NCBI GenBank assembly: GCA_019058365.1 | Contig: JAHPZE010000003.1 | Span: forward strand, 128,001 to 192,000 | Direction of reading: 5' to 3' | Source of the DNA: Promethearchaeota archaeon | GTDB lineage: Archaea; Asgardarchaeota; Lokiarchaeia; Sigyniarchaeales; SOKP01 | Length of the DNA: 64,000 nucleotides | Shown: in pieces, positions 6,249-60,857 of the stretch | Numbering within the stretch: the first letter of the stretch is position 1 | How the letters are laid out: every line of letters starts with the position of its first letter | Program-made: the position numbers and the translations under genes | The notes under the pieces: model-generated | Database searches by the model: none | What the model was told of the DNA's origin: nothing | Seen by the model: only the letters and a program-made list of their open reading frames with translations

Positions 6249-9200
6249 TTACAACTTATCTTTAGATATTAAATTTGGATATATTGGTTCAAATTTCGAT
6301 GTGAATACCTTTGGTTTTTTCCAACACTTTTTTTTTTCATTCCATTTAAGATTTTTCAAGGGATTATAGAATTTTAGTAAATCTTCATCTGCATAAATCG
6401 ATTTAATTAGTTCATTACCATCAACTAAATCATTTAATATCAGATAGTCTTTAACCTCTAAATATTCGAATAATAAGTCAAATAATCGTTCAAATTCACT
6501 AATTTCGCATTTAGGAAAATAAATTTTAATCATTAGCCCCGTTGGGAATCTTTTTTCTTGATCAAATCCATAAATGAAATATTCTCCCGTAATTTCAGAG
6601 ATATGTACTAAATTAAAAAAACTAAAAACTTTTACAAGTGATTTAATCATTTCTTTTTTCAAATTCGGTACAATAATGTAAACTTTATTATGAAGGTCTA
6701 AATTCTTTAAAGACAAATAGGGGAAAATTAAATTTTTTCTTAATAGACTAGTGATGTGGCTTATTGTCAACACTTTTTTTGTGATTAAATAGGATTTGAT
6801 ATCTATTGATTGTCTATTATAAATTTGAGAAAGAGATTCAAATTCAGGAGATTCAGGACCAAAATAAGAAGAAATTGATTTGTTGCCGACTTCATATTCC
6901 TTAATAAATAAATTTTCTATTTGATATTTTGGATTGAAAAGTATAGTTTGCATGTGCATTTTAAATCTGTCTTTGTCATAATTCCAACCTTCTAGGGTAA
7001 GGTTATTATCAAATTGAATAATATTATAAACTTTTTTTATAAAAAATCCACAGTATTCTCGTATTATATTTTTCGATCTTGCTAACCAGTGGATATAACT
7101 TAGTTGAGGTGAATCATAAGGCATAATATAATTTATGAAAAGAGAATTAGAATTATCTATCGAGGTGGGATAGTTAATTTTTTGAAAAGTATTAAGGAGG
7201 AGAAGTTTAAAATCGATCTCGTTCATATCTGTTGGATAAAGAAATAAATAATATTGTCCCAGTCCAAAATATTCAAAAGCAGGAATAAATCTTATAGATT
7301 TAATAAAATTTGTGAAAAAATATTCTTCCTTAGCATTTTTAAATTTCTCAATATTTATTAGATACTCTTTAAGGTTTAAATGAAAATCTAACAACCGGTT
7401 TAAATTTTTGTCATTGTAATCACAATTTTCACTCATACCACGGTCGTTAACTTTTTTCACTAAATCTAAGATGTTTTCTTCATTCGACCAAAAATTTTTT
7501 TGATTTCTATTAATCTCTTCTTCACGATATTCTAACCCACTCCTAAAAATACTTTTTACATATAGAAAATATTGTTCATAGAGATCTTTCGTATAAAAGA
7601 AGGTTTTACTATCAAAATCATATAAGTGTTTGCTAGATAATGCTTTAATCCTACCAGTCCATAAAAAAAACTTTCCATAGAGTAAATTTTCTTTAAAAAT
7701 GTTATAAAGAATTGAGAATAATTGTCTCTTTTCTTTTTTAGTCAAATAAGGAGTTGAAATCTCTACATATATTAGATTTTTATCAGAAATTATCTCTTTA
7801 CTATGATCTATAGTGATTCTAGGGAAAAATCTTTTCATTTTAATAAGAAAATTTTGAGTTTCTTGAGAATTGATTAAGATTAATTGGAGAAAGTCATTTA
7901 CATATTCTTCGATGTTAATTGTGTTAATTAAAAGCGGATTGATTATTGGGGGTTCATTCTCCAATAATTTATCTAATATACTAGTTACTTCTTGGCTGGT
8001 TATTTGATAAAGTTTGAATTTTTCATAGAATTTTTCTAATTTTTCCAATTTTATTTGGTAAATATTATCTACTACTGTTTTATCGATAAATGTCTTTTTA
8101 ATCGTACTTAGGTTGAATAATTTCAAATTATAAAAAATGTTAATTAAGTCATGGAAATTTATGTAATTCTCAACCATCATTTTAAAATCCTCTTGAGACT
8201 TAAAGTAAGCTGAAATAAGATCGCTAGAATCAAGATTTTTTAAGTGACTGCTGTTAAATATGATATTATCTTCAATTAAATGAGAATGATATTGATTATC
8301 CAAAATGTCATGAAATTCAATAAGTGTTTTAACTTGAGGGTAGCGGGTTATAATTTTTTTTATAAAATCCAAAACTTGTAAATACTCCTCTAACTTCTTT
8401 TTTATATAGAAAAATCCAAATTTTTTATTTTCATTTAGAAATTCGAGAAATTTTAACTGTAGATCTTTTGAATCATAAAATTTATTTAATTTATCTTTTA
8501 AATCTATAATTAGAGTACGTTGAGTAATAATCTCATCAACCAAATCTGATTTTAAAGTCGCTAATGTTTCAGTCCTTTTTTCAAATCCAAAACCAAAAAC
8601 AGAAATAAAGCGAATTCTATCAATTATTAAAAATTGAAGAAGAGAAAGTTCAGGATTAGAAAAATCAGAACTAAAGTCAATTTGAAATTCGATCTCAAAT
8701 TTCTTATCATAACTACGATGATTAGGGTTTATTATTTTGTATTTTTGTGAATATTCTCTTAAATAATTTAAATTGAGTAGATGATTTTCAAATGTACGAA
8801 GCAAACAATAGCTCTTAGTTATAAAATTAGAACTTTTCAATCTCTTGATAAATTTAATAAAATCATCTAAGTAAGGTCTTGGGAGGATCACATAACCACT
8901 AAGTTCAACCGAAAAACTATTAAGTGAAGTCTTAGTTGCAATAAAGAATGGAGACCCTTCAATAATACTAAATATCTTAGATTTTTTTAATATTGGATTA
9001 AATCGTAGAAATACTGCTATAACACATACATTTATTGCATTCCAATTCAATTGATAAGAAGGTGCGATAAAACTGTACTTTTTGATCCAATCCATGTTTT
9101 TGATAAATTTCCTCAAACTTAAATCAGATTCGAGCTCTTGATTCTCTTTAAATTTCTGAAAATATTTTTTATAGCTTGATAGATCCTTATAATTCTTCAC

Positions 9201-9899
9201 TCGATAAAATATTCTTATTAAACATCTAATTGTTTCAATGATCTCATCATTAGTTATCGATTTTGAAATATAGTTAGCAAATTCTTGAAGGAGGATCTCA
9301 TAGAAATCATCCATTTTATTGGTAATTAATGATTCATTTTTTAATAGATAATGAAAAAAGAATCGTTTAGGAGGGAGGAAAGTATCTTTTTCTTGTTGTA
9401 GAAAAAATTTTTCCAAACGATCAAATATAATTAATCGATTGAATCCCCCTGATAAGAGATCATATTGCTCAAGTTTTCCTCTAATCAACTTTCTCCATTC
9501 ATTCAGCGCAATAGAGTTTGAAAGATCAGTTAATATTATTTGGTTGAGAACAAGTTGAATTGATTCATATTCTTTTAAACTATCTGAAATAAAACAGTTA
9601 TATATTTCACGGAGAATAATAAAGGAGATGAACTTTAGATAATCTTTATGCATTTCTATAATTAAATTTTTATTTTGAGTATACCTTTTTACTCCAATAT
9701 TAAAAATATCTTCAGTTCTTAATTGTTTTGAAATTTTTTTTTTATTAATTATTATTTTCACATTTTTTTGAAATGGTTCCATTTCTAAGGATAATTTAGT
9801 CTCATTAAGAAGACGTTGGAATAGTGAATTCAGATCTTTCTCATTGATTTTCTCTAAAGATTTTTCTAATACTCTAAGATCTAGCTTAAATATTTTCAT
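6249..9899 (-). CDS. Giant (1216 aa) putative multi-module Lrp/AsnC-like regulator, paralog of 57225-60857
   Basis: Collinear similarity to the 1210-aa protein (SDLSLRKF, GFE[KR]R, FFYTKDL, SIRFIP, LIFPYLSLKNL, YNPLKNLKWN, KFEPIYP). Repeated HTH-linker-RAM-like segments; the family call is inference. Confidence 0.6.
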   Translation of the reverse strand: MKIFKLDLRVLEKSLEKINEKDLNSLFQRLLNETKLSLEMEPFQKNVKIIINKKKISKQLRTEDIFNIGVKRYTQNKNLIIEMHKDYLKFISFIILREIYNCFISDSLKEYESIQLVLNQIILTDLSNSIALNEWRKLIRGKLEQYDLLSGGFNRLIIFDRLEKFFLQQEKDTFLPPKRFFFHYLLKNESLITNKMDDFYEILLQEFANYISKSITNDEIIETIRCLIRIFYRVKNYKDLSSYKKYFQKFKENQELESDLSLRKFIKNMDWIKKYSFIAPSYQLNWNAINVCVIAVFLRFNPILKKSKIFSIIEGSPFFIATKTSLNSFSVELSGYVILPRPYLDDFIKFIKRLKSSNFITKSYCLLRTFENHLLNLNYLREYSQKYKIINPNHRSYDKKFEIEFQIDFSSDFSNPELSLLQFLIIDRIRFISVFGFGFEKRTETLATLKSDLVDEIITQRTLIIDLKDKLNKFYDSKDLQLKFLEFLNENKKFGFFYIKKKLEEYLQVLDFIKKIITRYPQVKTLIEFHDILDNQYHSHLIEDNIIFNSSHLKNLDSSDLISAYFKSQEDFKMMVENYINFHDLINIFYNLKLFNLSTIKKTFIDKTVVDNIYQIKLEKLEKFYEKFKLYQITSQEVTSILDKLLENEPPIINPLLINTINIEEYVNDFLQLILINSQETQNFLIKMKRFFPRITIDHSKEIISDKNLIYVEISTPYLTKKEKRQLFSILYNIFKENLLYGKFFLWTGRIKALSSKHLYDFDSKTFFYTKDLYEQYFLYVKSIFRSGLEYREEEINRNQKNFWSNEENILDLVKKVNDRGMSENCDYNDKNLNRLLDFHLNLKEYLINIEKFKNAKEEYFFTNFIKSIRFIPAFEYFGLGQYYLFLYPTDMNEIDFKLLLLNTFQKINYPTSIDNSNSLFINYIMPYDSPQLSYIHWLARSKNIIREYCGFFIKKVYNIIQFDNNLTLEGWNYDKDRFKMHMQTILFNPKYQIENLFIKEYEVGNKSISSYFGPESPEFESLSQIYNRQSIDIKSYLITKKVLTISHITSLLRKNLIFPYLSLKNLDLHNKVYIIVPNLKKEMIKSLVKVFSFFNLVHISEITGEYFIYGFDQEKRFPTGLMIKIYFPKCEISEFERLFDLLFEYLEVKDYLILNDLVDGNELIKSIYADEDLLKFYNPLKNLKWNEKKKCWKKPKVFTSKFEPIYPNLISKDKL

Positions 9900-9988
9900 T
9901 ATGCGTATATAAGATTAGTCAAATAAATTTTAAGAGATTAATATTTAATTTTTTTCATTTTAATATTTAATAATCTTTTTTCTGGGAA

Positions 9989-9996
9989 TTTATATA
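9989..9996 (+). promoter_or_regulatory. TATA box of peptide gene 1
   Basis: TTTATATA after CTGGGAA, 59 nt before the start; conserved in the duplicated copy at 12058-12065. Confidence 0.6.
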
Positions 9997-10047
9997 TTTA
10001 AATTTTAAAAAATTCTTAAGAAAATTTAGTTTTCTTGGTGTATTCAT

Positions 10048-10158
10048 TTGAAAATTAGAAATAAAAATTCAATATTATTAGCTTTATTGACCAGTATTTC
10101 AGCTTTTTTTCATATGTCCATCGGGTATGCATGGTCTGGTGGATATGGGACGCCTTAA
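10048..10158 (+). CDS. 36-aa putative secreted peptide / RiPP precursor, MKIRNKNSILLALLTSISAFFHMSIGYAWSGGYGTP
   Basis: TTG start 7 nt after a GGTG Shine-Dalgarno; basic n-region plus hydrophobic h-region; paralog at 12116-12230; directly upstream of the radical SAM gene. Confidence 0.75.
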   Translation: MKIRNKNSILLALLTSISAFFHMSIGYAWSGGYGTP

Positions 10159-10371
10159 ATATGTTTAAGCTAAAAAATGCTATAAAGCTAACATATATTT
10201 TTATTTTTTTATAGTAATTTAAGAGGAAATGCACCTTTACTTAGAGTAATTATTTCATGTTTAGTCTATTACAGATTATTTTTCAATTATTTCTTTTATA
10301 CTAGAAAAAGAATTCATTTGGTTTATAAATCTAAACTTTCATAATAATACATCCACAGATTTAGCATAAAT

Positions 10372-11952
10372 ATGAAAGCTCAAAATTTTAAAATTCTTTA
10401 TATTCATCCTGAAGAATCCAAAAATCGACCTTATTTCCTTTCAGGTATATTACGAATCTCAAATTATTTAAATTCAAGAAAACACTCACTAAATTATAAT
10501 ATTGAAGAAGAATATTTAGACTTAAGATTTGAACGATTACCTTCATTCTCATTCAAAAATATTCATAATTATAGAAAAAAACTAAAAAAATTATTATTTA
10601 AAACATACGATGATTTCAACTTTAATTTAGTAGCAATATCTTGCTATAGTTCATTTTATTACCTTAACACCTTAGAAATTGCTTTCATTATAAAATATTC
10701 AATTAATCCTGATTGTATAATAGTTGTTGGTGGACCTCACCCATCAATCATTCCAAATGATTTCAATCCTATCAATATTCCAAAATTCTTTTATGAGTTC
10801 TACCCTGATAATATAATCCCATTTAATTATATCATAAGAGAAGAAGCTGAAATTGGTTTTTTTAAATTAATTTGTAGTTTATTGAAGAATAATTCAGTGG
10901 AAAGGTCATCTTCAACGCATAAATTTAGAACCCTTACATCAGATTTAATAATAGACTTAGACAAAATTCCTGTAATAGATTTTTCTCTTTATGAAAAATA
11001 TAAAGAAAAAATTAATAAATTAGGTTTTATTAATATTGATTTCTGTAGGGGTTGTATGTTTCATTGTTCATTTTGCATAAATTCAACAGATTTTATGAAT
11101 TGTTATAAAAAAGTTAGATTAAAAAATATCAATTTATGCATAGAAGAAATAAAAGTTGTTAATGATACTAAATGGTTATCTATAAATGATATTCATATAA
11201 TGGATCCAATATTTTTTCCTAATAGAAGTTACAGAAATAAATTTTACTTAAAACTAAAACAATTTAAACACGAAACTGATGGTTTTCCAGATAAGATTCG
11301 TGTTTTTGATCGGATAGATTTATGTTCAGAAAAAGATTTAGAAAATTACAAAGATTTAAACATTATTCCAGAAATTGGTCTTGAATCAATTTCTAAAACC
11401 ACCTTAACTAATATGAATAAATTAAAAACTCTAGATGATAAAAGTATTATTAATTATACTAATAAAGTAAGAAAAATTATTGAGATTTCTAATAATTTAA
11501 AGCATGAAGTTAATTTTAATTACATATTTGGTTTTCCAGGATCATTGAAAGATGAATATAATGATTTTGATAATTTCTTCTTTAAGAATAATCAAAGAAT
11601 TCACTCATTAATGGAGAATTTTAATATAAATATAGTTTGGACCTTATATGCAGCTATACCAAGATCTAAAATCTATAATGAATGCGAATCTAAATTTGGA
11701 GCAAAAATTTTTTATAAGAATTGGTGGAGAATGCCGAAAGATAATCAAAGGGAGCTATGTAAATTAATAAAACCCAGTTCTAATTTAACTTTTGCTGAAA
11801 CAATTAATTTAGCAGAAAAATATTTTAAAAAAATATATTTTTTTCAACAAAAAAGAGGAAACAGATTTTATTCTAAGAACTATTACTCATTTTATAAAAG
11901 TCACCTTAAGCAATTAAGAGATGAATATTCAGATATTCTCTTCACTCAATAG
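10372..11952 (+). CDS. B12-binding-domain radical SAM enzyme (class B methyltransferase-like)
   Basis: N-terminal cobalamin-binding domain (LVAISC...IVVGGPHPS), CxxxCxxC motif RGCMFHCSFC, IGLES, IFGFPG. Confidence 0.9.
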   Translation: MKAQNFKILYIHPEESKNRPYFLSGILRISNYLNSRKHSLNYNIEEEYLDLRFERLPSFSFKNIHNYRKKLKKLLFKTYDDFNFNLVAISCYSSFYYLNTLEIAFIIKYSINPDCIIVVGGPHPSIIPNDFNPINIPKFFYEFYPDNIIPFNYIIREEAEIGFFKLICSLLKNNSVERSSSTHKFRTLTSDLIIDLDKIPVIDFSLYEKYKEKINKLGFINIDFCRGCMFHCSFCINSTDFMNCYKKVRLKNINLCIEEIKVVNDTKWLSINDIHIMDPIFFPNRSYRNKFYLKLKQFKHETDGFPDKIRVFDRIDLCSEKDLENYKDLNIIPEIGLESISKTTLTNMNKLKTLDDKSIINYTNKVRKIIEISNNLKHEVNFNYIFGFPGSLKDEYNDFDNFFFKNNQRIHSLMENFNINIVWTLYAAIPRSKIYNECESKFGAKIFYKNWWRMPKDNQRELCKLIKPSSNLTFAETINLAEKYFKKIYFFQQKRGNRFYSKNYYSFYKSHLKQLRDEYSDILFTQ

Positions 11953-12057
11953 AACTAACAAAAATTTCGATTGCCTTTTAAATTAGTGATTTTTATAGGA
12001 AGAGATTCAAATTATTTCAAGATCTATCAATCTTAGTTGCTTCTCTTTTTCTTGGAA

Positions 12058-12065
12058 TTTATATA
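12058..12065 (+). promoter_or_regulatory. TATA box of peptide gene 2
   Basis: TTTATATA after CTTGGAA, 58 nt before ATG; mirrors 9989-9996. Confidence 0.55.
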
Positions 12066-12115
12066 ATTAAGTTTTGAAAAAAATTAAAGAAAATTTAATA
12101 TTTAGGTGTTTTTAT

Positions 12116-12230
12116 ATGAAAATTCGTTATTAAATTTTCAATTTTATTAGCTTTATTGACAGCGATTTCAGTTTGGCTTCGAATGGTGATATTAGGATTT
12201 GCAGTTAATGCTGGTGAAGAAGGTCTATAA
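12116..12230 (+). pseudogene. Second peptide-precursor paralog with a 1-nt insertion; reconstructed as MKIR(IKF)SILLALLTAISVWLRMVILGFAVNAGEEGL
   Basis: ATG after an AGGTG SD; reads MKIRY*, then the shifted frame gives SILLALLTAISVWLRMVILGFAVNAGEEGL*. 17-nt identity TTATTAGCTTTATTGAC (12144-12160 = 10075-10091). Confidence 0.72.
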
Positions 12231-12612
12231 ATAAATTTGTATTAAGATAAAGCTAATAATTAATTTCCATTTCTATATTTTTTACTTTAAAAAATACTTA
12301 TTCCTTATTTATACTATTGAAAAATAGTAATATAATTAAACCTTTTTTAAAAAAGAGTGCACAAATTCTTTCCCTCAATTTAATCTAATTTAAATTTAGA
12401 TTGATTATGTATTTACTCAAATTTAAAGCACACAAAATTTCAAGGGGTGCTGTGCAAAATGAAAAATTCTGTTAAAATATGTACATTTATGTCAAATGCA
12501 ATCTTTAATATGCCTTTAGAAGCCTCCCTCTCTTCACTTAAATTTTCACACAAACATTTATAAGGAAAACTCCTTCACCTCTGATCTTAAAATTAAATAA
12601 AAGTGATATTAT

Positions 12613-12804
12613 ATGAAAAATGAAATGATTAAATATAAATGTCCTAGATGCCATGAAAAAAAAATAATCGACTATGGGAAAATAATTGAATGTGTTAAAT
12701 GTCAATTAGAGTTCTATAAAAGAGATATTGAAACTCTAAATAGAAGTAATATCTTAGCAATTTCAGAATTAAATGATTTTATAAGGATTTTAATAGAAAG
12801 TTAA
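12613..12804 (+). CDS. Small Zn-ribbon protein
   Basis: CPRC...CVKC; GTGAT SD upstream. Confidence 0.7.
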   Translation: MKNEMIKYKCPRCHEKKIIDYGKIIECVKCQLEFYKRDIETLNRSNILAISELNDFIRILIES

Positions 12805-12872
12805 AAAATTTTATATATCGATTAGCTATTATGAACTACAATTGAGGATATTTACGATTTCTAAGGATAAAT

Positions 12873-12977
12873 TGGTGCTCCCGCCGGGATTTGAACCCGG
12901 GTCACCAGGGTGAAGGCCTAGCATTCAAGTATTTATTCAAGTATAATTATTGCTTGGCCGGACTACACTACGGGAGC
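12873..12977 (-). tRNA. tRNA-Glu(TTC), 27-nt intron at 24/25 (12924-12950), encoded CCA, C at position 33
   Basis: GCTCCCG/CGGGAGC acceptor; CTAGG-CCTTCAC-CCTGG anticodon arm; GGTTCAAATC T loop; BHB central helix CAAG/CTTG. Confidence 0.92.
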
Positions 12978-13102
12978 AAATTATTATTAAAACAATATAG
13001 GTATATTAATCTTTTAAAATCTTTGATTTGAAAGCTTTTAACTAATTATTAATGTTGTAATTAATTTTGGGTTAAAAATTTTATGAATCATAGTCTTAAT
13101 AA

Positions 13103-13220
13103 TGCGGGAAGGGAGATTTGAACTCCCGAACTCCTACGAGAATGGATTCTAAGTCCACCGCCTATGGTCAGCCATCGATCAAGCGCCTTACAGCCTTTGA
13201 CCAGACTTGGCAATTCCCGC
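13103..13220 (-). tRNA. tRNA-Leu(TAG), 33-nt intron at 21/22 (13164-13196)
   Basis: GCGGGAA/TTCCCGC acceptor; GTGGA-CTTAGAA-TCCAT arm; long variable arm; BHB helix GGTC/GACC. Confidence 0.93.
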
Positions 13221-13396
13221 AAGTTGATATGTTAAAATTGTATTAATAATTAATTAAAAGACTAAGAAATAAAAAAAATTTTTTATAAGAGATTTAAAAA
13301 TTAAATACGATTGAATTAAAAGATAAAAATTTATTATTATACATAATACTAGAAATATAATATCAAGACTTAGCACAAAAAAACCTGATTTCTCTA

Positions 13397-14395
13397 ATGA
13401 GTGTAAGAGAGTCCTTAATAAAACATTTAACATCTATTCTCCGAGCATCAGAAGGTACATTTTTAGTTGTGTTATGTGATCAGAATGGTCTTTCAATAGC
13501 AAAAATAGGGAGAAAGAGTGAGATCGACTTAAACCCAAATCAAATCACAAGTTTAGCTTCAGCAGCTTTTTCTGCTAGCGAAGAAAATTGGGAAGATTTA
13601 AATATTAAAGACCAAGTTATTTCATTTTCATACTTTGATAAAGTTTGTTTAATAACAATTAGAATTAATGAAACACTTCTAACTATAGTGCATGATTACC
13701 ATAAAGATTGGCCTCTAGATGCAGATAATTTAGCCACCGCCATGTATTATTTGAAACAAAAATTAGGTGAATTTTTTGGAAGTGGAGATCAATCAGAGAG
13801 AGATGTTGAAATTTTTTGCGATAAAGTTCGTAGTGCGATTTATCTTTTTGGAATGGGTTCTGAAGTTCCCTTCGTATCTTATAAGCCCGAAAAATTTGAA
13901 CAATCATATTTGTTACCTTCAATAAGTACAATTTTAGATTCCATTCAGAATCCCATTTTTATAAGATATGCTCTAGTTAACCCTTCTGGTTTAACTTTGG
14001 ATGCTAGAGAAGTAAGTGGCCAAAATTTACCTATAACTATTGAGGCTTTCTCTGCAAATGCGAATGCAGCTTTTCAAAAAATGAAAGAGGAATCTCGGGG
14101 AAGTTCTATAGGAGATTTATTATGCTATATTACAATTTCTGGGGAGAATACTGAAAGTTTCTATGGGCTTATTACTTGCCCGTCAGCAAAAATAAAATTC
14201 TCCACAATGGATAAAACATCAAATATAGAAGATATTTCTTTTATTGGTTTATTTACATTAACATATGGGGGAATACCAGTTATCTGTGAATCAAGAAACA
14301 TAATAAGTTCAATTATGCAAATATTTGGTGAAGAACACATAACTATGAACTTTATAAAATCTGTAAATGTTCTTACAAGTTTTAAGTATGAATAG
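13397..14395 (+). CDS. Double roadblock/LC7 (MglB-like) domain protein
   Basis: Two copies of the roadblock signature (VLCDQNGLSIA...SLASAAF; ALVNPSGLTLD...SANANAAF). Confidence 0.8.
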   Translation: MSVRESLIKHLTSILRASEGTFLVVLCDQNGLSIAKIGRKSEIDLNPNQITSLASAAFSASEENWEDLNIKDQVISFSYFDKVCLITIRINETLLTIVHDYHKDWPLDADNLATAMYYLKQKLGEFFGSGDQSERDVEIFCDKVRSAIYLFGMGSEVPFVSYKPEKFEQSYLLPSISTILDSIQNPIFIRYALVNPSGLTLDAREVSGQNLPITIEAFSANANAAFQKMKEESRGSSIGDLLCYITISGENTESFYGLITCPSAKIKFSTMDKTSNIEDISFIGLFTLTYGGIPVICESRNIISSIMQIFGEEHITMNFIKSVNVLTSFKYE

Positions 14396-14425
14396 GAAAG
14401 GAACAAAATTGTTAATTTTAATAAT

Positions 14426-14914
14426 TTGGTGATTGTTTTTAATAATTCAATAATGACTATCTTCGATCCAATAAAAGAAATACCTAAAGTATTTTGTCTT
14501 AATTATGGAGAATGTGATCCGAAGAAATGTACTGCAAATAAACTAAAAAAACTTAATCTTTTAAAATCTATAAATAACATTAAAAGTCCATTAAATAATT
14601 CCATTATTTTAGATCCATTTGCCAGACAAGAGTTATCTGATCTTGATAGAAATATTGTTCTTAGATATGGTTTAATTGTAATTGACTGTTCTTGGAATAA
14701 TATTTTGAATTTAAAGAAATTGACATTTAAAAACGCTCGTAAATTGCCTCCTTTAATTGCTGCTAATCCAACAAATTATGGTAAATGGGAAAAATTAAGC
14801 TCAGCAGAAGCCCTAGTGGCAGCATTATTTATAACAAAATTTATTGAATATGGGAATCTGATTCTCTCAAAATTTTCTTGGGGTATTCAATTTAAAGAAT
14901 TAAACAAATTTTAA
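14426..14914 (+). CDS. tsr3: 16S rRNA aminocarboxypropyltransferase Tsr3 (real start may be the ATG at 14453)
   Basis: CDPKKCT, IDCSW and RKLPPLIAANPTNYGK...LSSAEAL motifs. Confidence 0.92.
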   Translation: MVIVFNNSIMTIFDPIKEIPKVFCLNYGECDPKKCTANKLKKLNLLKSINNIKSPLNNSIILDPFARQELSDLDRNIVLRYGLIVIDCSWNNILNLKKLTFKNARKLPPLIAANPTNYGKWEKLSSAEALVAALFITKFIEYGNLILSKFSWGIQFKELNKF

Positions 14915-14949
14915 AAAAAAAATTAGAAAAATAAAAATCATCAAATATA

Positions 14950-18496: not shown

Positions 18497-18524
18497 TTTT
18501 AAGATATCATAATTCAATATACAT

Positions 18525-20303: not shown

Positions 20304-21946
<1,643 letters not shown>

Positions 21947-31747: not shown

Positions 31748-31751
31748 TAAT

Positions 31752-50305: not shown

Positions 50306-50327
50306 AAAAAAATCTTTATATATTTAG

Positions 50328-52078: not shown

Positions 52079-52185
52079 TCTATTTTATTATTCTATTGTG
52101 AATATTTAAAGTCTACACATAATCTAATTTAAAATACTTATAAAAATGAGACAAAAACCAGCACCCAAGATAAGTACACTTACAA

Positions 52186-52653
52186 TTAAGTTATCTTTTC
52201 ACATTCATTATTGACAATTTTCATTGTCGCGTTAAAATCTTGCCACCAATCTTGCCCTTGCTGAGCTACCAACATAGGATCGATCTTATGAGAATCTAAG
52301 CATCTGATTTCTTCTTTATGGGCTTTAATTTTTCCTTTCCATATTTGAGAAATAATATTTTGTAAATTAATTTTTACTTTTTTAATTAATTCTTCGTAAG
52401 GAACCGAAACATCTTCAGTTTTTTGTAATCTTTGAAGTTGGTCAAACTTAACCTTTTCTTTTGCTCGATTTAAATCACTACAACTGATTTTAATAGAAAA
52501 CGGTTCCTCCTTTCCCCATTTGCAAAATTTTTGAATATCACATAAAGAACAATAACTTTCAAAACTAATTGTGTAATCCTCAAGACCAACTATAGAATAA
52601 TTTAAAATTTTTGGCATTTTTCTACTTTTGTTTATTAATAATAACATACACAC
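52186..52653 (-). CDS. Hypothetical Cys-containing protein (start probably at MPKILNY)
   Basis: CSLCDIQKFC motif. Confidence 0.65.
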   Translation of the reverse strand: MCMLLLINKSRKMPKILNYSIVGLEDYTISFESYCSLCDIQKFCKWGKEEPFSIKISCSDLNRAKEKVKFDQLQRLQKTEDVSVPYEELIKKVKINLQNIISQIWKGKIKAHKEEIRCLDSHKIDPMLVAQQGQDWWQDFNATMKIVNNECEKIT

Positions 52654-52724
52654 TTTAAGCTATTATATTTTAGGGCTTTCAATTTTTTGGTTTAATTTAA
52701 AAAGGTATTTATAAAAAAAAATTC

Positions 52725-53554
52725 ATGAAACCATCAAATAAAAAGACATTTTATCTCACGGTAATCTCTATATCTGTTATAATTGGTATTATTTCAGTTA
52801 TCTTATTGTATATATTTAATTGGAATGCAATAGTTCAGTAATATCTTATCCATGAGGGCGCTTTAGGCGTAGTATTGATCCTTTCGAGTAGAATAATTAT
52901 TTTATCTGGAATGGTCACATATACCTTTTATAATAGTTTCAGCAAGAACAACAATATTTTTCGGATTTACCGTTTTTATTCGGGATTTTCTTCTTATTTC
53001 TTGTATTCGGAAAGGCTTTTGATTTATTTGTGGATTTCATTTATTTTCAATTGAATGAGACTCTTGTTTTAAATACCCTTAAGATTCGATACTTCATTAT
53101 GATCTTTGACTTCTTACCAATGATATTTCTTAGTACTGAAATGATTCTATTTTCCTTTTCATTGCGATCAAGATTAAACAGACTTACCAACGAGGAAATG
53201 CGCAATAAGATTAGCTGTCGATTGATTTTCAGCATTTTATTTATTGAGTTCATAGTCGGAATATTAGCACCAAGTATTCGAACCTTAACCATATATTATA
53301 CTGTTATAATCATTCCTTCATCAATTACAATATTCTGGCTCTTTCGATTTGCTTATAAAAGCAAACATCTCTCTCCAGTCAACACGTTAATCTTGACAAT
53401 AGGATTTGGAGCTTATTTAATTTCTCAAATAGTCCTCTCTTTAGCACAGTTTATTATCGGAGAATCTGATACTTTCTTGATTTTTCCTAAATCAATAGAT
53501 TTGGTTATTTTCCATGTTATCTTTCTAGGTTTTTACCGGGAATCTAAGTATTAA
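52725..53554 (+). pseudogene. Disrupted multi-pass membrane protein
   Basis: MKPSNKKTFYLTV...NWNAIVQ* (TAA 52839-52841); the frame continues, then shifts near 52935 into FQQEQQYFSDLPFLFGIFF..., which runs into ORF 53030-53554. Confidence 0.7.
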
Positions 53555-53615
53555 ACTAATTTTTTTCTAAATTACTTTTTCTTTAAATAATTCGTATTAA
53601 AGTTTAAGTTATATT

Positions 53616-54842
53616 ATGTTTAAATTAAAAAGAAACGGATCAAAATCATATTTTAATATAAATTATGTTTCATTTGTATTTATATATTTAACCTATTCAT
53701 CTATATTTGTTTTTCTTAATAAATTTCTTCCAATTCTCTTTTTTGATGTATTAGATATTAATAGAATTATTCTTGCATTAATGCAGTTTCTTGCTTATTC
53801 CATATTATTATTACGTCCTGTTTTAGCTACAATAACAGATAACTTCAGAATTAAGGGTTATCAACGGAAATATTATATTATTCTTTCTGGATATTTATTA
53901 GCGTTATTCTACATTCTTATTGGGTTTAACTTCAATAATATTTTAATGTTTGGAGTCCTTTTATGTTTGATTTATATTTCAAGTATGATGCTAGATGTTT
54001 GTTCAAAATCCTTAGTTATTGATATTTCACCAACTAACGTAATAAAAAAAAGAAACCTCTTTTTTGTGTCTTTAGGCGAAGCTTTAGGAAATTTTTTTCC
54101 TTTCTTTTTATTCTTTCTTCTTATCAATGATGTTCATTCAATAAATTCTTGGGAAACTATGATTTACTGTAGCTTTCTTTTATTAATACCTTTATTAAGT
54201 ATTTTGCCATTTATTATTGAGAGAAGGCAATGGAATCCTCAAGTCATCGAAAAGCCCGAAAGGATTGAAATTTCTGAAGAAATTAGTCTAAATTCTAATC
54301 ATAAACCTAAATTAACATTCATTTTACTCTGCATTTTTATCTTTTTTGCATTTAGCGATGTAATTTTCGCATATCCTTTTTTTCCTTATCTAATACACAA
54401 ATTTGGACTCAATAACTTTAATATATTTAATCTCTTTTTAAGCTTTTATTTTCTCATAAGTATAGTGAGTAGTGCAATTGGTGGATTTCTTGTTAAAAAA
54501 GCAAAACCTAAAATTATTATATTCATTCTAATCCCAATAATCGGAATTATTTATTTGATGTATATAATTGTCCCTTTTACATATTTTACTATATTATATT
54601 TTTTAGGATGCTCTTTAGGGACAATTGCTAACTTTAACATTACAGTATATATTATGAAGTTTAAACAAGGAGATAAATCAGTCTATTTTCACCTTATAGC
54701 ATCCTTCAGACATCTAGCATGCTTCATTTTTATTCCATTAGGAACTCTACTTTCCAGTTTTATAATTACTGAATATCTTATTATCATTGGTGCTATATTG
54801 TTGAATATCTCAATCCTTCCTTTAATTTTTGTAAAACTCTAA
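53616..54842 (+). CDS. MFS transporter
   Basis: About 12 TM helices; LRPVLATITDN...RKYYI and MLDVCSKSLVID motifs, as in BT1/AmpG-like MFS proteins; convergent with YcaO. Confidence 0.82.
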   Translation: MFKLKRNGSKSYFNINYVSFVFIYLTYSSIFVFLNKFLPILFFDVLDINRIILALMQFLAYSILLLRPVLATITDNFRIKGYQRKYYIILSGYLLALFYILIGFNFNNILMFGVLLCLIYISSMMLDVCSKSLVIDISPTNVIKKRNLFFVSLGEALGNFFPFFLFFLLINDVHSINSWETMIYCSFLLLIPLLSILPFIIERRQWNPQVIEKPERIEISEEISLNSNHKPKLTFILLCIFIFFAFSDVIFAYPFFPYLIHKFGLNNFNIFNLFLSFYFLISIVSSAIGGFLVKKAKPKIIIFILIPIIGIIYLMYIIVPFTYFTILYFLGCSLGTIANFNITVYIMKFKQGDKSVYFHLIASFRHLACFIFIPLGTLLSSFIITEYLIIIGAILLNISILPLIFVKL

Positions 54843-54879
54843 AAAAATTAAAAGAAATATTTTTATGATAATTATAATT

Positions 54880-56649
54880 TCAACAAAAGAAATCTTGGAT
54901 CTTATGATCATAGTGATTTTTAATAACCTTGAAAAGATCCGGATATTTAGATGTAATTTTTTTCTCGATAAATTCAAGTAAACCATATCTACATGTTCGC
55001 ACATGCCTGCAATTATTACATTCTTGATGACAATTTGGAATCAATTTTTCTAGCCTTGTTAAGAGTTTTTTTGAAAAATCTTTAAATGGTTCATTTTTAA
55101 ACGTAATTGGGATCTCATTGGATTTCCTTAATTTCCAAAATTTTTTAAAGAGATCAGAATTGCCGTAAGCTAAACAAAGCAAAGAAAAAAACTCCCATGT
55201 AGATATTCGTCTTAGAGCAAGTGTATCAATTCCTAGAAATGTTGAAAGGTTATAATTTTTTATCACTACATAAATCAACGATTCAGATCTAGATAATATT
55301 TCTAAGTCAATTGATTGGATATCTCTTATATTTGTTATGAGTATTTTCTTTAGCTTAAATACTTGATCTGGCATGTATAAGAGATAATCAAGTATGCAAC
55401 ATTCGAGTTCTGGAACAAATAATCTTATTGTAGGAAAACCAAGCCAATTATAGTCTCTCATATAAATATACCAACCATTTTTTCTACAAAATTCTGTAAG
55501 ATTTTTTAGTTCAACAAGAAAATTTTTATCACTATAATCCCATTTCTTAAAACTTCCAAAATTTACAATTAGAAATTCTAATTTTTTTGAAGGATACATT
55601 TGCTGGACTTCAAATCTATATTTGAAAAAACCTTCTAATGGGAAATAGTTGTTTATTTCGGGAAAAACTTTATACAATTTTGAAATACTTAATAAATAGC
55701 GTTTAGTATATCTTAATCTAATTTTATGAAATGGAAAGACTTGTAATTTTTCGGTAAAACATCGCTCAATTGCGAAATTAATGGAAGTAGCTGCGGATAT
55801 ATGAAATTCCAGTTTATCGATCTGTTTATGGTGAAAAACTACACCGACTACAGGGATTCCTTTGTTTAAGCTCAAATCTTTTACAATAATATCAATATTC
55901 TCTTTATTAAATTTCTGTATAATTTCTTTATTATTATTTGAAATATATTCTGATGGTATTGTAGGGCATTTTATATTATCAGAAATTACTTTTATTATAG
56001 TATAAGTTTCGAAAATCTCACATAAAGCTTGCACAAAAGCTTCTTCGTATGAATTTCCCGAGGCACATCCTTTAGTTGAGGATAAGAAAATAGTATCAAG
56101 AAAAACTTCTTCATTTGTATAAACATTCTTAAATGGGAGATACATCTTATTGTATCCATCCCAATTAGGTAAGTATGGATTGTTTTTTCGTGTTTTTTTA
56201 AAAATTCTCTCATTTAATTCTTTATCTTTCTCGGATATCTCTGTATTAAATATAGGACAAATCTTTGGTTTTAATAGGTTTCGTGAAAACCACCACCCAA
56301 TTTGAATTCTTTCTATTAATTCAGCATATCCACTAGCAACACTAGCCTCTAAAGTCGTACCTTTCCCAAAGGAATTATATAGAATAAAATCATTACTAAC
56401 CTCTAAAGCATGACTGAGATTTGTACTAGTGATCCATATATCTTCGATTGAACTTGTATAAGAAGAATGCTCAACAAATTTATTTCTTTTTAAGAAAAAT
56501 TTTAATGATTTTGTTATATTCTGAATGGTTTCTTGAAATGAAACGGCTTTATAACCATTCACTTTTTCAGAATTTCTAAAACCATTAAACTTTGGATAAA
56601 AAATATGTGTTCTATCCTGTTTAAAATAGGATTTATCAATTATTGTCAT
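54880..56649 (-). CDS. ycaO: Stand-alone YcaO-family protein with a Cys-rich C-terminal extension
   Basis: GKGTT...ASVASGYAELIER, KGCASGNSYEEAFVQALCEIFE, KDLSL..GIPVVGV, AIERCFTEKLQ, PTIRLFVP. Confidence 0.9.
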   Translation of the reverse strand: MTIIDKSYFKQDRTHIFYPKFNGFRNSEKVNGYKAVSFQETIQNITKSLKFFLKRNKFVEHSSYTSSIEDIWITSTNLSHALEVSNDFILYNSFGKGTTLEASVASGYAELIERIQIGWWFSRNLLKPKICPIFNTEISEKDKELNERIFKKTRKNNPYLPNWDGYNKMYLPFKNVYTNEEVFLDTIFLSSTKGCASGNSYEEAFVQALCEIFETYTIIKVISDNIKCPTIPSEYISNNNKEIIQKFNKENIDIIVKDLSLNKGIPVVGVVFHHKQIDKLEFHISAATSINFAIERCFTEKLQVFPFHKIRLRYTKRYLLSISKLYKVFPEINNYFPLEGFFKYRFEVQQMYPSKKLEFLIVNFGSFKKWDYSDKNFLVELKNLTEFCRKNGWYIYMRDYNWLGFPTIRLFVPELECCILDYLLYMPDQVFKLKKILITNIRDIQSIDLEILSRSESLIYVVIKNYNLSTFLGIDTLALRRISTWEFFSLLCLAYGNSDLFKKFWKLRKSNEIPITFKNEPFKDFSKKLLTRLEKLIPNCHQECNNCRHVRTCRYGLLEFIEKKITSKYPDLFKVIKNHYDHKIQDFFC

Positions 56650-56814
56650 ATTCTTATTACATGTTTATTTATTTCTATAAAATTTCTATAAGTCAAACAA
56701 ATTTCTAATTTCAATTTAAACTCCTAAAAACCTAAAAAATTTGAAAAATGATTTCAGTTTTTCAAAATAGTAGTTAAAAAATAAATATAAAACAGTTTTA
56801 GGACACGAGAAGTT

Positions 56815-56841
56815 AGAAAAGAAGAAATAAAAAGAAGAAAT
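56815..56841 (-). terminator. Oligo-T-rich tract after the peptide gene
   Basis: Minus strand TTTCTTCTTTTTATTTCTTCTTTTCT about 30 nt after the stop codon. Confidence 0.4.
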
Positions 56842-56869
56842 ATAGTAATTTAATTTGATAGTGATTTAC

Positions 56870-57010
56870 TTAATATGGAAATCCAGTTCTGCCATGAGGG
56901 ACTTGAAAGCGTGGGCATCCCTTACCGCCATGAGGGACTTGAAAGCGTGGGCATCCCTTACCGCCATGAGGAATCGTAAATAAATCAAATATCATCTCAT
57001 TGCTATTCAT
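56870..57010 (-). CDS. 46-aa multi-core RiPP precursor candidate, MNSNEMIFDL-FTIPHGGKGCPR-FQVPHGGKGCPR-FQVPHGRTGFPY
   Basis: Hand translation; same strand as YcaO and 220 nt upstream of it; three 12-aa cassettes; TTTAAATA TATA-like box near 57080-57087. Confidence 0.8.
   Translation of the reverse strand: MNSNEMIFDLFTIPHGGKGCPRFQVPHGGKGCPRFQVPHGRTGFPY
56891..56971. repeat. Perfect 36-nt tandem repeat, 2.25 copies
   Basis: GCCATGAGGGACTTGAAAGCGTGGGCATCCCTTACC at 56891-56926 and 56927-56962, plus GCCATGAGG at 56963-56971; GC-rich against an AT-rich background. Confidence 0.97.
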
Positions 57011-57224
57011 CTTTATTAAACCCTAATTATTAAATAATGAATTAATTAGTCATTATTCAATAACTTATGTTATCTCATATATTTAAAGTTCTAATATTTT
57101 CCTACACCTAGAGACAGGTAATAAAAAATAAAAGAAAGTAAAGTAAATCCTTAAATTGAAATAGAATTAAGTTAAATTATTTAAAAGAAAATCAACTTTT
57201 TTTTCTTAAATATAACGTTCTCTT

Positions 57225-60200
57225 TTGCAGATAATGGATTTCATAAATGAATTTGAACATCTAAAAAGGCTTTCATTAGGTAAAGAGCTCGAAGATATTG
57301 ATATAATTTTTCAAAAGTATATAGATTCTATATATAACTATTTAAAGTTAGAACCTGTTCATAAAAATGTGAGAATACACCTCTTGGAAAAAGAAAATTT
57401 ATTAAAAGAAGAAAAGGAAATTAATCCCTTTGATATTGGGGTTGCTCGATTCATCCAAGACAAAATCTTACATTTAGAGATCTCTCAAAAATATACTGAA
57501 TTTTTACCGTATATCTTATTAAGAGAAGCATATTATATTTTTCTTCCGAAAAGAAGTGTATCTGTTGAGATAGCAGTAAATTCATTTATAGAAAAGGATT
57601 TACAAGATTTAGATGAGATTGGCAAGTGGCAATCAATGATTCGAGAATGCTTTATCCATGATGATTCTGTGAGTAAAATTATGACGGCTTTTGAAAAATT
57701 ACATCTGGAAGTAGCAGACTTATGTAAAATATTTTTTAATATGGTTAGGAATAATATTTCCCTAATTGATAAAGACATGGATGATTTAGTTACTCGACTT
57801 CAAGAAGAAATAATGTCTAAACTCTCAAAAATTTTCTATAACGATGAAATGGTTGAGACTTTGAGAGTCCTCATCGAAATATTTTATAGAGTTAAACAAT
57901 ACACCGCATTATTGAATTATCAGGAACATTTTAAAATCTATAAAGAAAAAAATATAATAAAGAGTGATTTGAGTTTAAGGAAATTTACATCAAATATGAA
58001 ATTAATAAGCAATAATTCTCTACTTAGCCCTAGTTATCTAACCCGGTGGAATACAATCGATGTATTTGTTTGTTTCTGTTATATGAGATTCCATCCTAAA
58101 ATAACTGTTTCTCAGATAAATAGGATTTTAAAAACCTTTCCTTTTTTTCTAGAACCCAGAACTGCTTACTCTTCTGGCTTTTGTCCAGATATTTTTGGAT
58201 TTTTCATTTTACCAAGAGTCTACTTTTTAGATTTTATAGGCATATTAAACAGAATGAAAAATAATAATTATTTGACTAAATTATCTGTTTATAGGCTTAA
58301 CTATTTCTTTAATTTTGCTAACTTAAATTTTCTTAGGAGTTTTCATAAATATGAATCTCTTATTAATCCCTTTCACAATCAATATGATATTAAATTTGAG
58401 ATAAATTATTTCTTAAACTATGGTGAAAATTTTCATCAGAAAGAATTAGATCTGCTTGATTTTTTGATTTTAGATAGAATTAGGTTCTTTTCTACAAATT
58501 CATTTGGATTTGAAAGAAGAGCTAATACTTTAACAGACCTAAAAAAAAGTATTATTGAAGAAGTTACATATCAAAGAAATCTTATTATCGATATTAAAGA
58601 ACTTGCCAAAAAAATTTCTGAAAAACCAAAAATTAAATCCAATTTTCTTAAATTTTTAGATACCAACCAAACTTATGGACTATTTTATATTAAAAATGTC
58701 TTAGATTCACTACTAACAATATTGATCTTTATTGAAATATTTTTCATAAAAAATCCGAATATTAAAAACACATTTAATTTTAAAGAATGGATTAAGAAGC
58801 ATGGATTATCTAATCTAATTGAGAGTAATCTATTTTTAAAAAAAAAATTTATAAAAACACTGATTTTTAATGACTTCGTACCGCTTTATTTTAATTCTAA
58901 AGAAAAATTCAAGGAGAAATTAAACGAATACAAGATATACAATCAATTCATAGATATATGTTTCAATCTTAAAACATTCAATTTAAAAGTCATAAAACAG
59001 ATTGTTGAAAATCCGGAAACTTTGAAAAAAGTTTATGAAAAAAAAGAGTTAAAACTAAAAGAGATATATGAAATAGTGAAACTAACAGATATTACAAGTA
59101 AAGAAGTTGAAGAAAGAATAGCAGGATTCCTTAAAAATAAACCACCCATAATAGAACCGTGGTTACTTAACACTCTTGGATATTTATATACGAATATAGA
59201 AGATTTAGTTTTTATAATTAAAAATGATGAAGAAACCTTGAAAAAACTTAATTTAATTAAAAAGTTTTTTCCCTTTTTTATAATCTTTACTTCAACAGAT
59301 TTGATCTCTAATGAGGATATAATTTTTACTGAAGTCAGTTTCCCCAACTTTCATTACCGTGATGCATATCAATTTTATTCCATATTATATAATACATTTA
59401 AGGAAAATCTACTAATCGCTAAGAGATATTTATCTAGTGGATTTACTCCTGTATTTTCTTTAAAATCCTTTTATAATTTCGAGACACGTCAATTCTTTTA
59501 TACTAAAGATTTATTTAAGCAATTCTTTCATTACATACAAAAAACTTTAGGAGAAAATTTTGAGTTTATTCCAATTAAAGATAATAAAATCTTATCAAAA
59601 TTACTCTCAAAAGAAAATAATATGTTTAATTTGGTAAAAACAATAAAAAACAGACAATCAAGAGATAAAATTGATTATAAAATTAAAAACTTAAAAAAAT
59701 TAATAGAATTTAATCTCAATCTTGATAAATCATTAAAAGATTTAGAAAAATATAAAGAAATAAAGCAAGAAACCTTTTTTAAAAAATATGTAAACTCTAT
59801 CCGATTCATTCCCTCTTTTCAACATTTTGGATTTGATCAGTTTTTTTTGTATATTTTCCCGATAGATATGAGTAAAATCGATTTAAAACTTCTATTTCTC
59901 AATAATTTTCAACAAATAAAATGTTCCTCATCAATTGATGCTCCCAATCCATTATTAATTAAATATATCATGCCTAATAACACTCCCAATGATAAATATC
60001 TCCATTGGTTGGTGAAATCAATGAAAGTAATTCAAGAATACTCTTTATTCTCTGTTAAAAAAATTTATAGTTTATTACATTTTGATTACAATCTTGCTGA
60101 AAATGGTTGGGAATATGATGCTGATAAATTTAAAAGCCACTTGGAAAATATTCTCTTTAAGTCGGGTTATGAGATTGAAATTCCTAAAGTGAGAGAATTT

Positions 60201-60857
60201 AATATTTCAAAACAATTAACCTCTTCTTATTATGATCCAAAATCTGAGGAATATGAAACTCTCACCAAAATCTATGGTCGGAAATCCTTGGATATGAAAT
60301 CTTATTTAGGAACAAGAAATTATAAAGTTGTAAACTCAATTAAAAACTTATTAAACAAAAAATTAATATTTCCATATTTATCCCTAAAGAATTTAGGATT
60401 TCAAGATAAACTTCTTATAATTCTTCCCAATATTAAATCCAAATCTAAAGACATTTTATTACAAATATTCAGTTACTTTAATTATGGTTTTATTTATGAA
60501 ATTGAAGGAGAATTTTACATTTATGGATTTGATAAGGAAGTAAAATTTGAGGAAGGATTAATGATAAAACTGTATCTTCCAAAATCCAAGTTTAGCATGT
60601 TTCATAAATTTCTTGAAGTCTTTAATTTATTATTTGAATATTTAGAAATCCCCCATTATTTATTTTTATATGATTTAGTTAACAGTAAGGAGTTAATTAA
60701 ATCGGTTTATGGAAATATTCAGTTCCTAAAACAATATAATCCTTTAAAGAATCTAAAGTGGAATAAAAAGGACAAAATTTGGTTGAATCATAAGGTATTT
60801 ACTCAGAAATTTGAACCTATATATCCAGATTTACTTTATAATAAAGAAGATAATTAG
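57225..60857 (+). CDS. Giant (1210 aa) putative multi-module Lrp/AsnC-like regulator, paralog of 6249-9899
   Basis: End-to-end similarity with the 1216-aa protein; N-terminal LLREAY motif; repeated HTH-RAM-like segments (inference). Confidence 0.6.
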   Translation: MQIMDFINEFEHLKRLSLGKELEDIDIIFQKYIDSIYNYLKLEPVHKNVRIHLLEKENLLKEEKEINPFDIGVARFIQDKILHLEISQKYTEFLPYILLREAYYIFLPKRSVSVEIAVNSFIEKDLQDLDEIGKWQSMIRECFIHDDSVSKIMTAFEKLHLEVADLCKIFFNMVRNNISLIDKDMDDLVTRLQEEIMSKLSKIFYNDEMVETLRVLIEIFYRVKQYTALLNYQEHFKIYKEKNIIKSDLSLRKFTSNMKLISNNSLLSPSYLTRWNTIDVFVCFCYMRFHPKITVSQINRILKTFPFFLEPRTAYSSGFCPDIFGFFILPRVYFLDFIGILNRMKNNNYLTKLSVYRLNYFFNFANLNFLRSFHKYESLINPFHNQYDIKFEINYFLNYGENFHQKELDLLDFLILDRIRFFSTNSFGFERRANTLTDLKKSIIEEVTYQRNLIIDIKELAKKISEKPKIKSNFLKFLDTNQTYGLFYIKNVLDSLLTILIFIEIFFIKNPNIKNTFNFKEWIKKHGLSNLIESNLFLKKKFIKTLIFNDFVPLYFNSKEKFKEKLNEYKIYNQFIDICFNLKTFNLKVIKQIVENPETLKKVYEKKELKLKEIYEIVKLTDITSKEVEERIAGFLKNKPPIIEPWLLNTLGYLYTNIEDLVFIIKNDEETLKKLNLIKKFFPFFIIFTSTDLISNEDIIFTEVSFPNFHYRDAYQFYSILYNTFKENLLIAKRYLSSGFTPVFSLKSFYNFETRQFFYTKDLFKQFFHYIQKTLGENFEFIPIKDNKILSKLLSKENNMFNLVKTIKNRQSRDKIDYKIKNLKKLIEFNLNLDKSLKDLEKYKEIKQETFFKKYVNSIRFIPSFQHFGFDQFFLYIFPIDMSKIDLKLLFLNNFQQIKCSSSIDAPNPLLIKYIMPNNTPNDKYLHWLVKSMKVIQEYSLFSVKKIYSLLHFDYNLAENGWEYDADKFKSHLENILFKSGYEIEIPKVREFNISKQLTSSYYDPKSEEYETLTKIYGRKSLDMKSYLGTRNYKVVNSIKNLLNKKLIFPYLSLKNLGFQDKLLIILPNIKSKSKDILLQIFSYFNYGFIYEIEGEFYIYGFDKEVKFEEGLMIKLYLPKSKFSMFHKFLEVFNLLFEYLEIPHYLFLYDLVNSKELIKSVYGNIQFLKQYNPLKNLKWNKKDKIWLNHKVFTQKFEPIYPDLLYNKEDN

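Follow-up and report, generated by a model that had tools for sequence, protein, structure and literature searches.

A predicted Lrp-like giant protein linked to hypervariable micro-peptide genes in one Lokiarchaeia family: a candidate peptide-sensing cassette

Two cassettes of a giant gene and a micro-peptide gene

We describe here a gene cassette that occurs twice in a 64,000-nucleotide stretch of DNA (hereafter the window; positions 128,001 to 192,000 of contig JAHPZE010000003.1, GenBank assembly GCA_019058365.1) from a Promethearchaeota archaeon of the Lokiarchaeia family SOKP01. An earlier note, made from the sequence alone, had singled out two genes for paralogous giant proteins, each lying head-to-head with an unannotated peptide gene that is followed by one enzyme of a kind known from peptides that are synthesized ribosomally and modified post-translationally (RiPPs), and had read the arrangement as a modular Asgard system. 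The coordinates and strands of its six open reading frames (ORFs) agree with the sequence, as do the divergent gaps of 148 nucleotides (nt; locus A) and 214 nt (locus B) between giant and peptide gene, and the two giants are paralogous, with 41% identity over 1201 amino acids (aa). A search of the genome found no giant copy beyond these two. Two parts had been overlooked, namely a major facilitator superfamily (MFS) transporter gene at 53616-54842 and a frameshifted second peptide gene at 12116-12230. The window holds two cassettes, one signal-type (locus A) and one MFS-type (locus B), with the following parts:

6249-9899, minus strand: giant A, 1216 aa; gluzincin-like head without zinc ligands plus four Lrp/AsnC-like units, a fold predicted by way of the model of paralogue B
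9989-9996, plus strand: TATA box of peptide gene 1, read from the sequence; the pattern is common family-wide
10037-10040, plus strand: GGTG, Shine-Dalgarno-like site of peptide gene 1, read from the sequence; the pattern is common family-wide
10048-10158, plus strand: peptide gene 1, signal-peptide-type precursor of 36 aa with a TTG start
10159-10215, plus strand: hairpin and T-tract, a putative terminator 3' of peptide gene 1
10372-11952, plus strand: B12-binding radical SAM enzyme, 526 aa, with CxxxCxxC at residue 228; optional accessory, possible peptide C-methylase
12116-12230, plus strand: second signal-type peptide gene, frameshifted (profile E 1e-8)
53616-54842, plus strand: MFS transporter (Pfam), 408 aa, convergent on the YcaO gene; core part of leaderless-peptide loci
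54880-56649, minus strand: stand-alone YcaO, 589 aa, with a Cys-rich C-terminus; optional accessory
56870-57010, minus strand: repeat-type precursor, 46 aa
57225-60857, plus strand: giant B, 1207-1210 aa, architecture as giant A; an ATG at 57234 is a likelier start than 57225

Both peptide genes carry a TATA box and a terminator-like T-tract, which bears out their reading as real genes. In the window each peptide gene has a T-tract or hairpin of its own behind it, and peptide and enzyme therefore need not share a transcript. A search of sequencing runs listed none of RNA origin that contains these sequences.

The product of peptide gene 1 has a basic n-region, a hydrophobic h-region and a G-x-A cleavage-like site, with WSGGYGTP as its predicted mature tail, and matches a profile of 34 family precursors, itself included, with E 5e-14. 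The same tail recurs in genome G101 (locus L149), ahead of the same radical SAM gene. The second gene (12116-12230) stands behind a duplicate of the peptide gene 1 promoter block, and one extra base after codon 5 leads to a premature TAA; in G101 the gene at the equivalent position is intact. Its tail has diverged from the GGP ending of the family, and given this drift the sequence suggests real decay rather than a sequencing slip.

The locus B precursor consists of a short leader and three 12-codon cassettes with the core PHG-x-x-G-x-P, two of which are nearly identical at the DNA level. An assembly artefact at this 36-nt repeat is ruled out: read depth there, in the likely source run, is 143 versus 83-87, which fits two copies, and an orthologue in G102 keeps both the length and the cores. 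We left aside one joint in run X3 that bypasses the peptide-YcaO block and is 23 bases long on one side.

Micro-peptide genes accompany the giant throughout one family

The giant is found in 118 of the 134 genomes of the window's family by single-sequence search (115/134 by profile), mostly as one copy per genome and in some genomes as up to four. None of the 265 other genomes of the Asgard phylum that were searched encodes it, and a profile search of 1.8 billion representatives returned a closed family of 182. The Asgard-wide distribution proposed in the earlier note is thereby ruled out, and the system is confined to one family.

To score peptide genes uniformly, we collected 6 kb upstream of 120 giants, together with downstream DNA for 82, and applied a fixed micro-ORF filter (an ORF of 7-60 aa with at least three Gly or Pro in its last ten residues). 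The filter was passed by 67 of 108 giant-divergent intergenic regions (62%), a somewhat optimistic figure since the filter was designed after the first loci had been seen. Pass rates were 10% on the opposite strand, 1.8% in shuffles, 3.75% (34/906) upstream of this genome's other genes and 5.4% in other intergenic DNA of relatives, which rules out chance ORFs. The enrichment of small ORFs beside giant homologues that the earlier note had proposed as a check is accordingly present, at 62% against 2-5% in unrelated controls. As an out-of-sample case, the most divergent giant (L310, E 3e-15) has a radical SAM gene and a pair of signal-type peptide genes next to it. Manual curation of both flanks places a peptide gene at 88 of 118 giant loci, and regulatory elements are far denser at these genes than at 1039 control micro-ORFs: a TATA box at 70/90 versus 19%, a Shine-Dalgarno site at 52/90 versus 10%, and a T-tract at 81/90 versus 46%. 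The pairing of the giant with a hypervariable micro-peptide gene holds family-wide, and we regard the linkage as close to certain.

The precursors take three forms. Signal-type precursors (27 loci; 36-41 aa) have basic, hydrophobic and A-x-A-like regions ahead of a Gly-rich tail of 8-12 residues that often ends in GGP, and are comparable to Phr and PapR; their genes occur in arrays of up to five copies. Leaderless peptides (59 loci) are 8-14 aa long and mostly begin Met-Pro, as in MPHGGEVCP. The repeat type is found at 2 loci, 56870-57010 among them, and its PHG-x-x-G-x-P core resembles a leaderless peptide. Mature peptides are 8-12 residues long and rich in Gly and Pro, and their sequence varies between loci. 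Distinct peptide families go with each giant clade and are kept across genera, and paralogous giants within one genome often have different peptides. Signal-type mature tails have a ratio of nonsynonymous to synonymous change (pN/pS) of 0.35, with 45 of 79 differences at third positions; for this and the other pN/pS value given below, numbers are small and pairs were picked by DNA identity. Signal-type genes are often TTG-started (L182:2562-2680, minus strand, apparently starts with CTG), because of which gene callers miss them; such starts may hold translation low.

Two probable export routes and a minority of accessory enzymes

An MFS gene adjoins 49 of 61 leaderless or repeat loci versus 1 of 27 signal-type loci (Fisher p 4e-12, which is overstated as kin are not independent), and 18 of the 20 closest homologues of the window's transporter (57% identity or more) adjoin a giant. 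This near-exclusive pattern is the strongest clue that the peptide crosses the membrane, presumably by one of two routes. The genome also encodes four SBP_bac_5 importer components and signal peptidase I. Among the leaderless loci without an MFS gene, several have a gene for a methyltransferase or ThiF and are placed within groups of signal-type loci in the giant tree. That tree is a quick version built from 137 columns, with half of its forks unresolved, and we use it only to show the recurrence of accessory enzymes and of peptide types across several clades.

The enzyme families named in the earlier note stand: the product of 10372-11952 has B12-binding and Radical_SAM Pfam matches, both under the curated cut-offs, alongside its CxxxCxxC motif, and that of 54880-56649 matches YcaO with E 2e-38. 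Radical SAM, YcaO, ThiF and methyltransferase genes recur beside the giant in several tree branches. A giant adjoins about 9 of the 29 close radical SAM homologues and 3 of the 15 YcaO matches, against under 1% expected by chance. Even so, only 22 of 118 loci have any enzyme (radical SAM 9, ThiF 9, methyltransferase 4, YcaO 3) and only 12 a radical SAM or YcaO gene, and an obligatory maturase is ruled out, as most family loci have no enzyme. Of the interchangeable peptide-plus-maturase cassettes proposed earlier, what survives is thus the recurrence of the enzymes far above chance; the conserved unit, as far as gene content tells, is giant, micro-peptide gene and export route, with the maturase optional. 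More than half of the close radical SAM homologues have neither a giant nor a detected peptide nearby, and three further enzyme loci have a peptide and no adjacent giant: L151 (G040), L174 (G109) and L159 (G082), the last also with an MFS gene and in a 100%-complete genome without a giant match anywhere. Judged by this gene content, the radical SAM and YcaO enzymes are linked to the system and not demonstrably dedicated to it. That the window's two enzymes modify their adjacent peptides seems probable.

As to the type of YcaO, the 100%-complete genome has no match to TfuA (PF07812), for which a control genome was positive, and we reject a TfuA-dependent thioamide enzyme. A typical azoline-forming YcaO, as in linear azol(in)e-containing peptides (LAP) and thiazole/oxazole-modified microcins (TOMM), is likewise rejected: the protein lacks a Pro-rich C-terminal PxP tail and a fused domain, its second motif reads ExxET, it scores 66 against the SagD model (cut-off 219), and no E1-like partner, dehydrogenase or protease adjoins it in the window.

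Some further enzyme arrangements may be recorded. ThiF/E1-like genes stand beside some peptides at L078 (G106), L033, L035, L112 and L151; L078 has two identical leaderless peptides that end in Gly-Gly, like the tails of sulfur-carrier or ubiquitin-like proteins, beside a radical SAM gene and a split ThiF gene. Genomes G036-G039 (L152, L153, L154, L157) have a radical SAM gene near the site equivalent to the window's with no peptide or giant beside it; the giant of this genus lies elsewhere, facing an aldo-keto reductase-like gene in three genomes. Away from giants, the B12 radical SAM family also occurs as tandem or fused doubles (L155:3535-6777, L162, L164), including one 1080-aa ORF with two units.

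A peptidase-like head on four Lrp-like units

Neither giant has any Pfam match, TPR included, and a sequence-profile search of the PDB with the giant returned nothing usable. We draw on an AlphaFold2 model of giant B, which has a predicted local distance difference test score (pLDDT) of 85 and a predicted template modelling score (pTM) of 0.85. For model residues 1-190 the matches are gluzincin peptidases, many of them (Z 7-8, about 165 residues aligned, root-mean-square deviation (rmsd) 3.3-4.7). NirDL, an Lrp-type dimer fused into one chain, is matched by residues 194-759 (Z 13.6, 295 aligned, rmsd 4.8) and again by the C-terminal 412 residues (Z 10.0, 267 aligned, rmsd 5.8). True Lrp/AsnC regulators come lower in both match lists (NMB0573, PF0864, PH0061 and AsnC, Z 4.8-5.9). 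On this model, the giant is a gluzincin-like head without zinc ligands followed by four Lrp/AsnC-type units, each a winged helix-turn-helix (wHTH), a linker and a RAM domain, a predicted regulator-type fold that agrees with the role which the earlier note had given to the giant. Internal repeats are visible at the fold level only; a profile-profile search returned nothing beyond its built-in overlaps. A feature search of the ESM Atlas gave, as a lead only, a best match of 0.77 to an AsnC-type HTH cluster.

The head is unlikely to cut peptides: across 30 aligned rows, the HExxH position reads RExY (R in 26/30, E in 27/30, no His in 30/30) and the third zinc ligand position is mostly Q, with an Asn invariant, and we reject an active gluzincin peptidase on these grounds. 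Conservation is highest in the first wHTH and the last RAM domain (50-51% mean identity), and lowest in the head (33%); a conserved wHTH1 with a variable head is, at the sequence level, as expected of an output joined to a variable sensor. The basic recognition-helix motif is conserved. No membrane helix is evident, the top 19-residue hydropathy being 1.5-1.9 with the peak on a RAM strand. When the first 775 model residues of giant B were modelled together with the 46-aa precursor, the complex scored 0.00 with an uncertain partner fold, a result that counts neither for nor against an interaction.

Chromosomal setting

The cassette occupies a few recurring chromosomal sites in either orientation (L031-L150), for example between Trm5/tRNA-Arg and a TFB cluster or beside CdhD, and no integrase or transposase is a regular neighbour at these loci. 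tRNA or tRNA-like genes adjoin both window cassettes: tRNA-Arg at 61216-61291 (plus) is the only flanking candidate that ARAGORN calls, and 12829-12924 and 13088-13222 (minus) look like intron-containing tRNAs missed by both ARAGORN and Rfam. Signal peptidase I-like genes adjoin the cassette at L077, L123 and L174, which may reflect the insertion site only. The window also has a 16S rRNA gene at 20365-21856 (minus), which could serve to place the genome phylogenetically; a 23S gene was not found within the window.

Comparison with known systems

The arrangement is closest in logic to the RRNPP systems of Bacillota (Rgg/SHP, Rap/Phr, PlcR/PapR, NprR/NprX, AimR/AimP), in which a cytoplasmic regulator also lies beside, and often divergent from, a tiny peptide gene. 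Shared with them are presumed export, a diversity of candidate cognate pairs, the presence of several paralogous channels in one genome and a subset beside radical SAM or ThiF genes (PMC13361665); the rgg and shp genes diverge from each other, and of the Rgg/SHP systems in Streptococcus thermophilus half adjoin ThiF or radical SAM genes (PMC13361665). At the sequence level, 88 of 118 giant loci have an adjacent gene for a short, apparently exportable peptide, with a signal peptide at 27 and an MFS gene at 49 of the other 61, and a putatively cytoplasmic receptor has an oligopeptide importer available to it in the SBP_bac_5 genes, whose role here is putative. The parts differ, however. The RRNPP receptor is an HTH fused to TPRs, whereas the giant's model consists of gluzincin-like head, RAM domains, wHTHs and long helices, with no TPR-type peptide-binding domain and no TPR match in Pfam, and we reject membership in RRNPP; the likeness to SHP/Rgg noted earlier extends to the divergent layout and not to the fold. 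Here an MFS transporter, rather than PptAB, stands beside leaderless peptides, the peptides are Gly/Pro-rich and the host is an archaeon. In streptococci, moreover, the radical SAM enzyme modifies a separate precursor, whereas the giant loci have one peptide type only.

Each part of the cassette has relatives elsewhere. The model shares wHTH-linker-RAM units paired into fused dimers with Lrp/AsnC regulators and with the Lrp-fold enzymes NirDL (PDB 4CZC, 4CH7) and AhbA/B (4CZD), but puts four such units on one chain of 1,200 aa, with a long helical insertion, an N-terminal pseudo-peptidase and under 15% identity. With gluzincins (M1 aminopeptidases, M4 thermolysin) the head shares its fold, the position of the HExxH helix and the Glu of that helix, but both His and the apparent third ligand are replaced, and the domain is joined to a body of regulator type. 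RiPP clusters (YcaO azol(in)e, thioamide and amidine types, B12 radical SAM types, microcin C, multi-core cyanobactin-type) likewise combine a small precursor, a member of the same enzyme families and an adjoining exporter, and the multi-cassette precursor at 56870-57010 is of their kind. A modifying enzyme lies beside the precursor at both window loci and at 22 of 118 in the family and is absent from the rest, and many enzyme homologues have no nearby peptide. Unlike in RiPP clusters, most precursors lack a RiPP leader, and a third have a Sec-type signal peptide instead. YcaO and radical SAM RiPP clusters have been reported across archaea, with Asgard archaea mentioned only in passing (PMC12144867). 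A literature search, with subscription journals outside its coverage, found no prior description of the system, in agreement with the earlier note.

A candidate peptide-sensing cassette and its alternatives

We narrowly favour the reading that this is a lineage-specific peptide-sensing cassette that works like RRNPP with unrelated parts. A self-contained micro-gene encodes a Gly/Pro-rich peptide of 8-12 residues that differs by locus. Signal-type precursors would leave the cell by Sec and signal peptidase I, leaderless and repeat types by the adjoining MFS transporter, and at the minority of loci that have an accessory enzyme (B12 radical SAM, YcaO, ThiF or methyltransferase), this would alter the peptide before export. 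After re-entry, through an oligopeptide ATP-binding cassette (ABC) importer or the MFS transporter, the peptide would bind the cytoplasmic giant; the likeliest sites are a RAM-domain pocket and the cleft of the zinc-less gluzincin head. The four Lrp-like units, as a single-chain pair of dimers, would then change transcription, probably at the divergent promoters. The window's two copies would constitute two channels. A peptidase fold that has lost its metal and kept its cleft would make a natural peptide sensor, and the variability of the modelled head matches that of the peptides. A fuller version of this reading, which we advance tentatively and hold at slightly under even, is an Asgard peptide-pheromone system independent of RRNPP, with the giant as one-component receptor: its dead peptidase head would read the cognate exported peptide, in some cases after chemical tuning by optional enzymes (radical SAM, YcaO or ThiF), and its Lrp tetramer, a single chain, would control transcription, so that strains have channels of their own for density or kin sensing.

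Several observations weigh against peptide sensing. Linkage alone would be expected to yield co-variation of giant and peptide. Peptide genes went undetected at 30 of 118 loci (the downstream side was not always available), and some loci carry the peptide gene downstream of the giant rather than divergent from it. Export is unexplained at the 12 leaderless loci that have no nearby MFS gene. Leaderless peptides have a pN/pS of 0.71, that is, weak purifying selection only, which at the sequence level is weak constraint or diversification. NirDL is an Lrp-fold enzyme, and the fold is therefore no proof of transcription control. Finally, clade alignment and palindrome counts found no shared operator motif, only TATA/BRE-like (B recognition element) and Shine-Dalgarno elements.

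The cassette might instead be a peptide natural-product cluster of microcin C or RiPP type, in which the peptide is the product (a toxin, or an adhesion or metal ligand), the MFS protein exports it or confers immunity, and the giant regulates the pathway by sensing something else. Short leaderless peptides with ThiF, methyltransferase, GNAT-ThiF and MFS genes do recall the microcin C gene set, and the YcaO locus fits best, its three-cassette precursor, YcaO and MFS gene (53616-57010) forming a typical RiPP layout; the enzymes beside giants (about 9/29 and 3/15 of their relatives) and the peptides without a giant at L151, L159 and L174 point the same way. We nevertheless consider it unlikely: about 80% of loci are without an enzyme and most precursors without a RiPP leader, no residue is common to all peptides of one enzyme type, and unmodified hypervariable Gly/Pro octamers are poor toxin candidates. 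Still less probable to us is that the giant is itself a peptide-processing or peptide-modifying enzyme, a repurposed Lrp-fold barrel catalyst like NirDL or AhbA/B whose dead head holds the substrate. The siroheme decarboxylase NirDL tops the fold lists of both halves, with dimeric ferredoxin-barrel enzymes next, 27/30 rows retain the zincin motif's catalytic Glu, and RAM3 and RAM4 are as conserved as wHTH1 (46-51%). But the chemistry that the peptides share beyond Gly and Pro is almost nil, the basic, conserved recognition-helix motif is retained, and divergence from a peptide gene is the usual layout of a regulator. We give little credence, lastly, to the micro-ORFs being cis-acting leader peptides (attenuator or ribosome-arrest) or small-RNA starts that tune the downstream MFS or enzyme gene, with the giant an ordinary Lrp-type regulator of the same promoter; many of them end in Pro-stop and precede a hairpin, a T-tract and then an MFS or enzyme gene in the same orientation, but 27 loci encode full signal peptides with cleavage-like sites, and many peptide genes lack a following gene in their own orientation, face a convergent MFS gene or form arrays of up to five stand-alone copies.

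Significance

Little is known of how archaeal cells communicate with one another; the best model for a signal comes from Haloferax, where it is a proteinase K-resistant small molecule (PMC12240190). No component of the cassette is homologous to a known peptide-signalling system, though its layout resembles RRNPP. The system's confinement to one family means that it says nothing direct about the ancestor of eukaryotes, and that culture work with Lokiarchaeia strains of other families is probably not feasible; to our knowledge, the SOKP01 family has no cultured member. The reading of the cassette as a peptide sensor is testable without culture all the same, given about 90 natural receptor-peptide pairs, cheap 8-12-mers and a soluble protein. 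The candidate substrates that accompany the accessory enzymes are tiny, and new peptide chemistry is possible. If peptide sensing by the giant is true, the family would have a new receptor class, in which a fused Lrp tetramer bears a pseudo-peptidase sensor, within the phylum of archaea nearest to eukaryotes, and would represent a second, independent origin of RRNPP-type logic.

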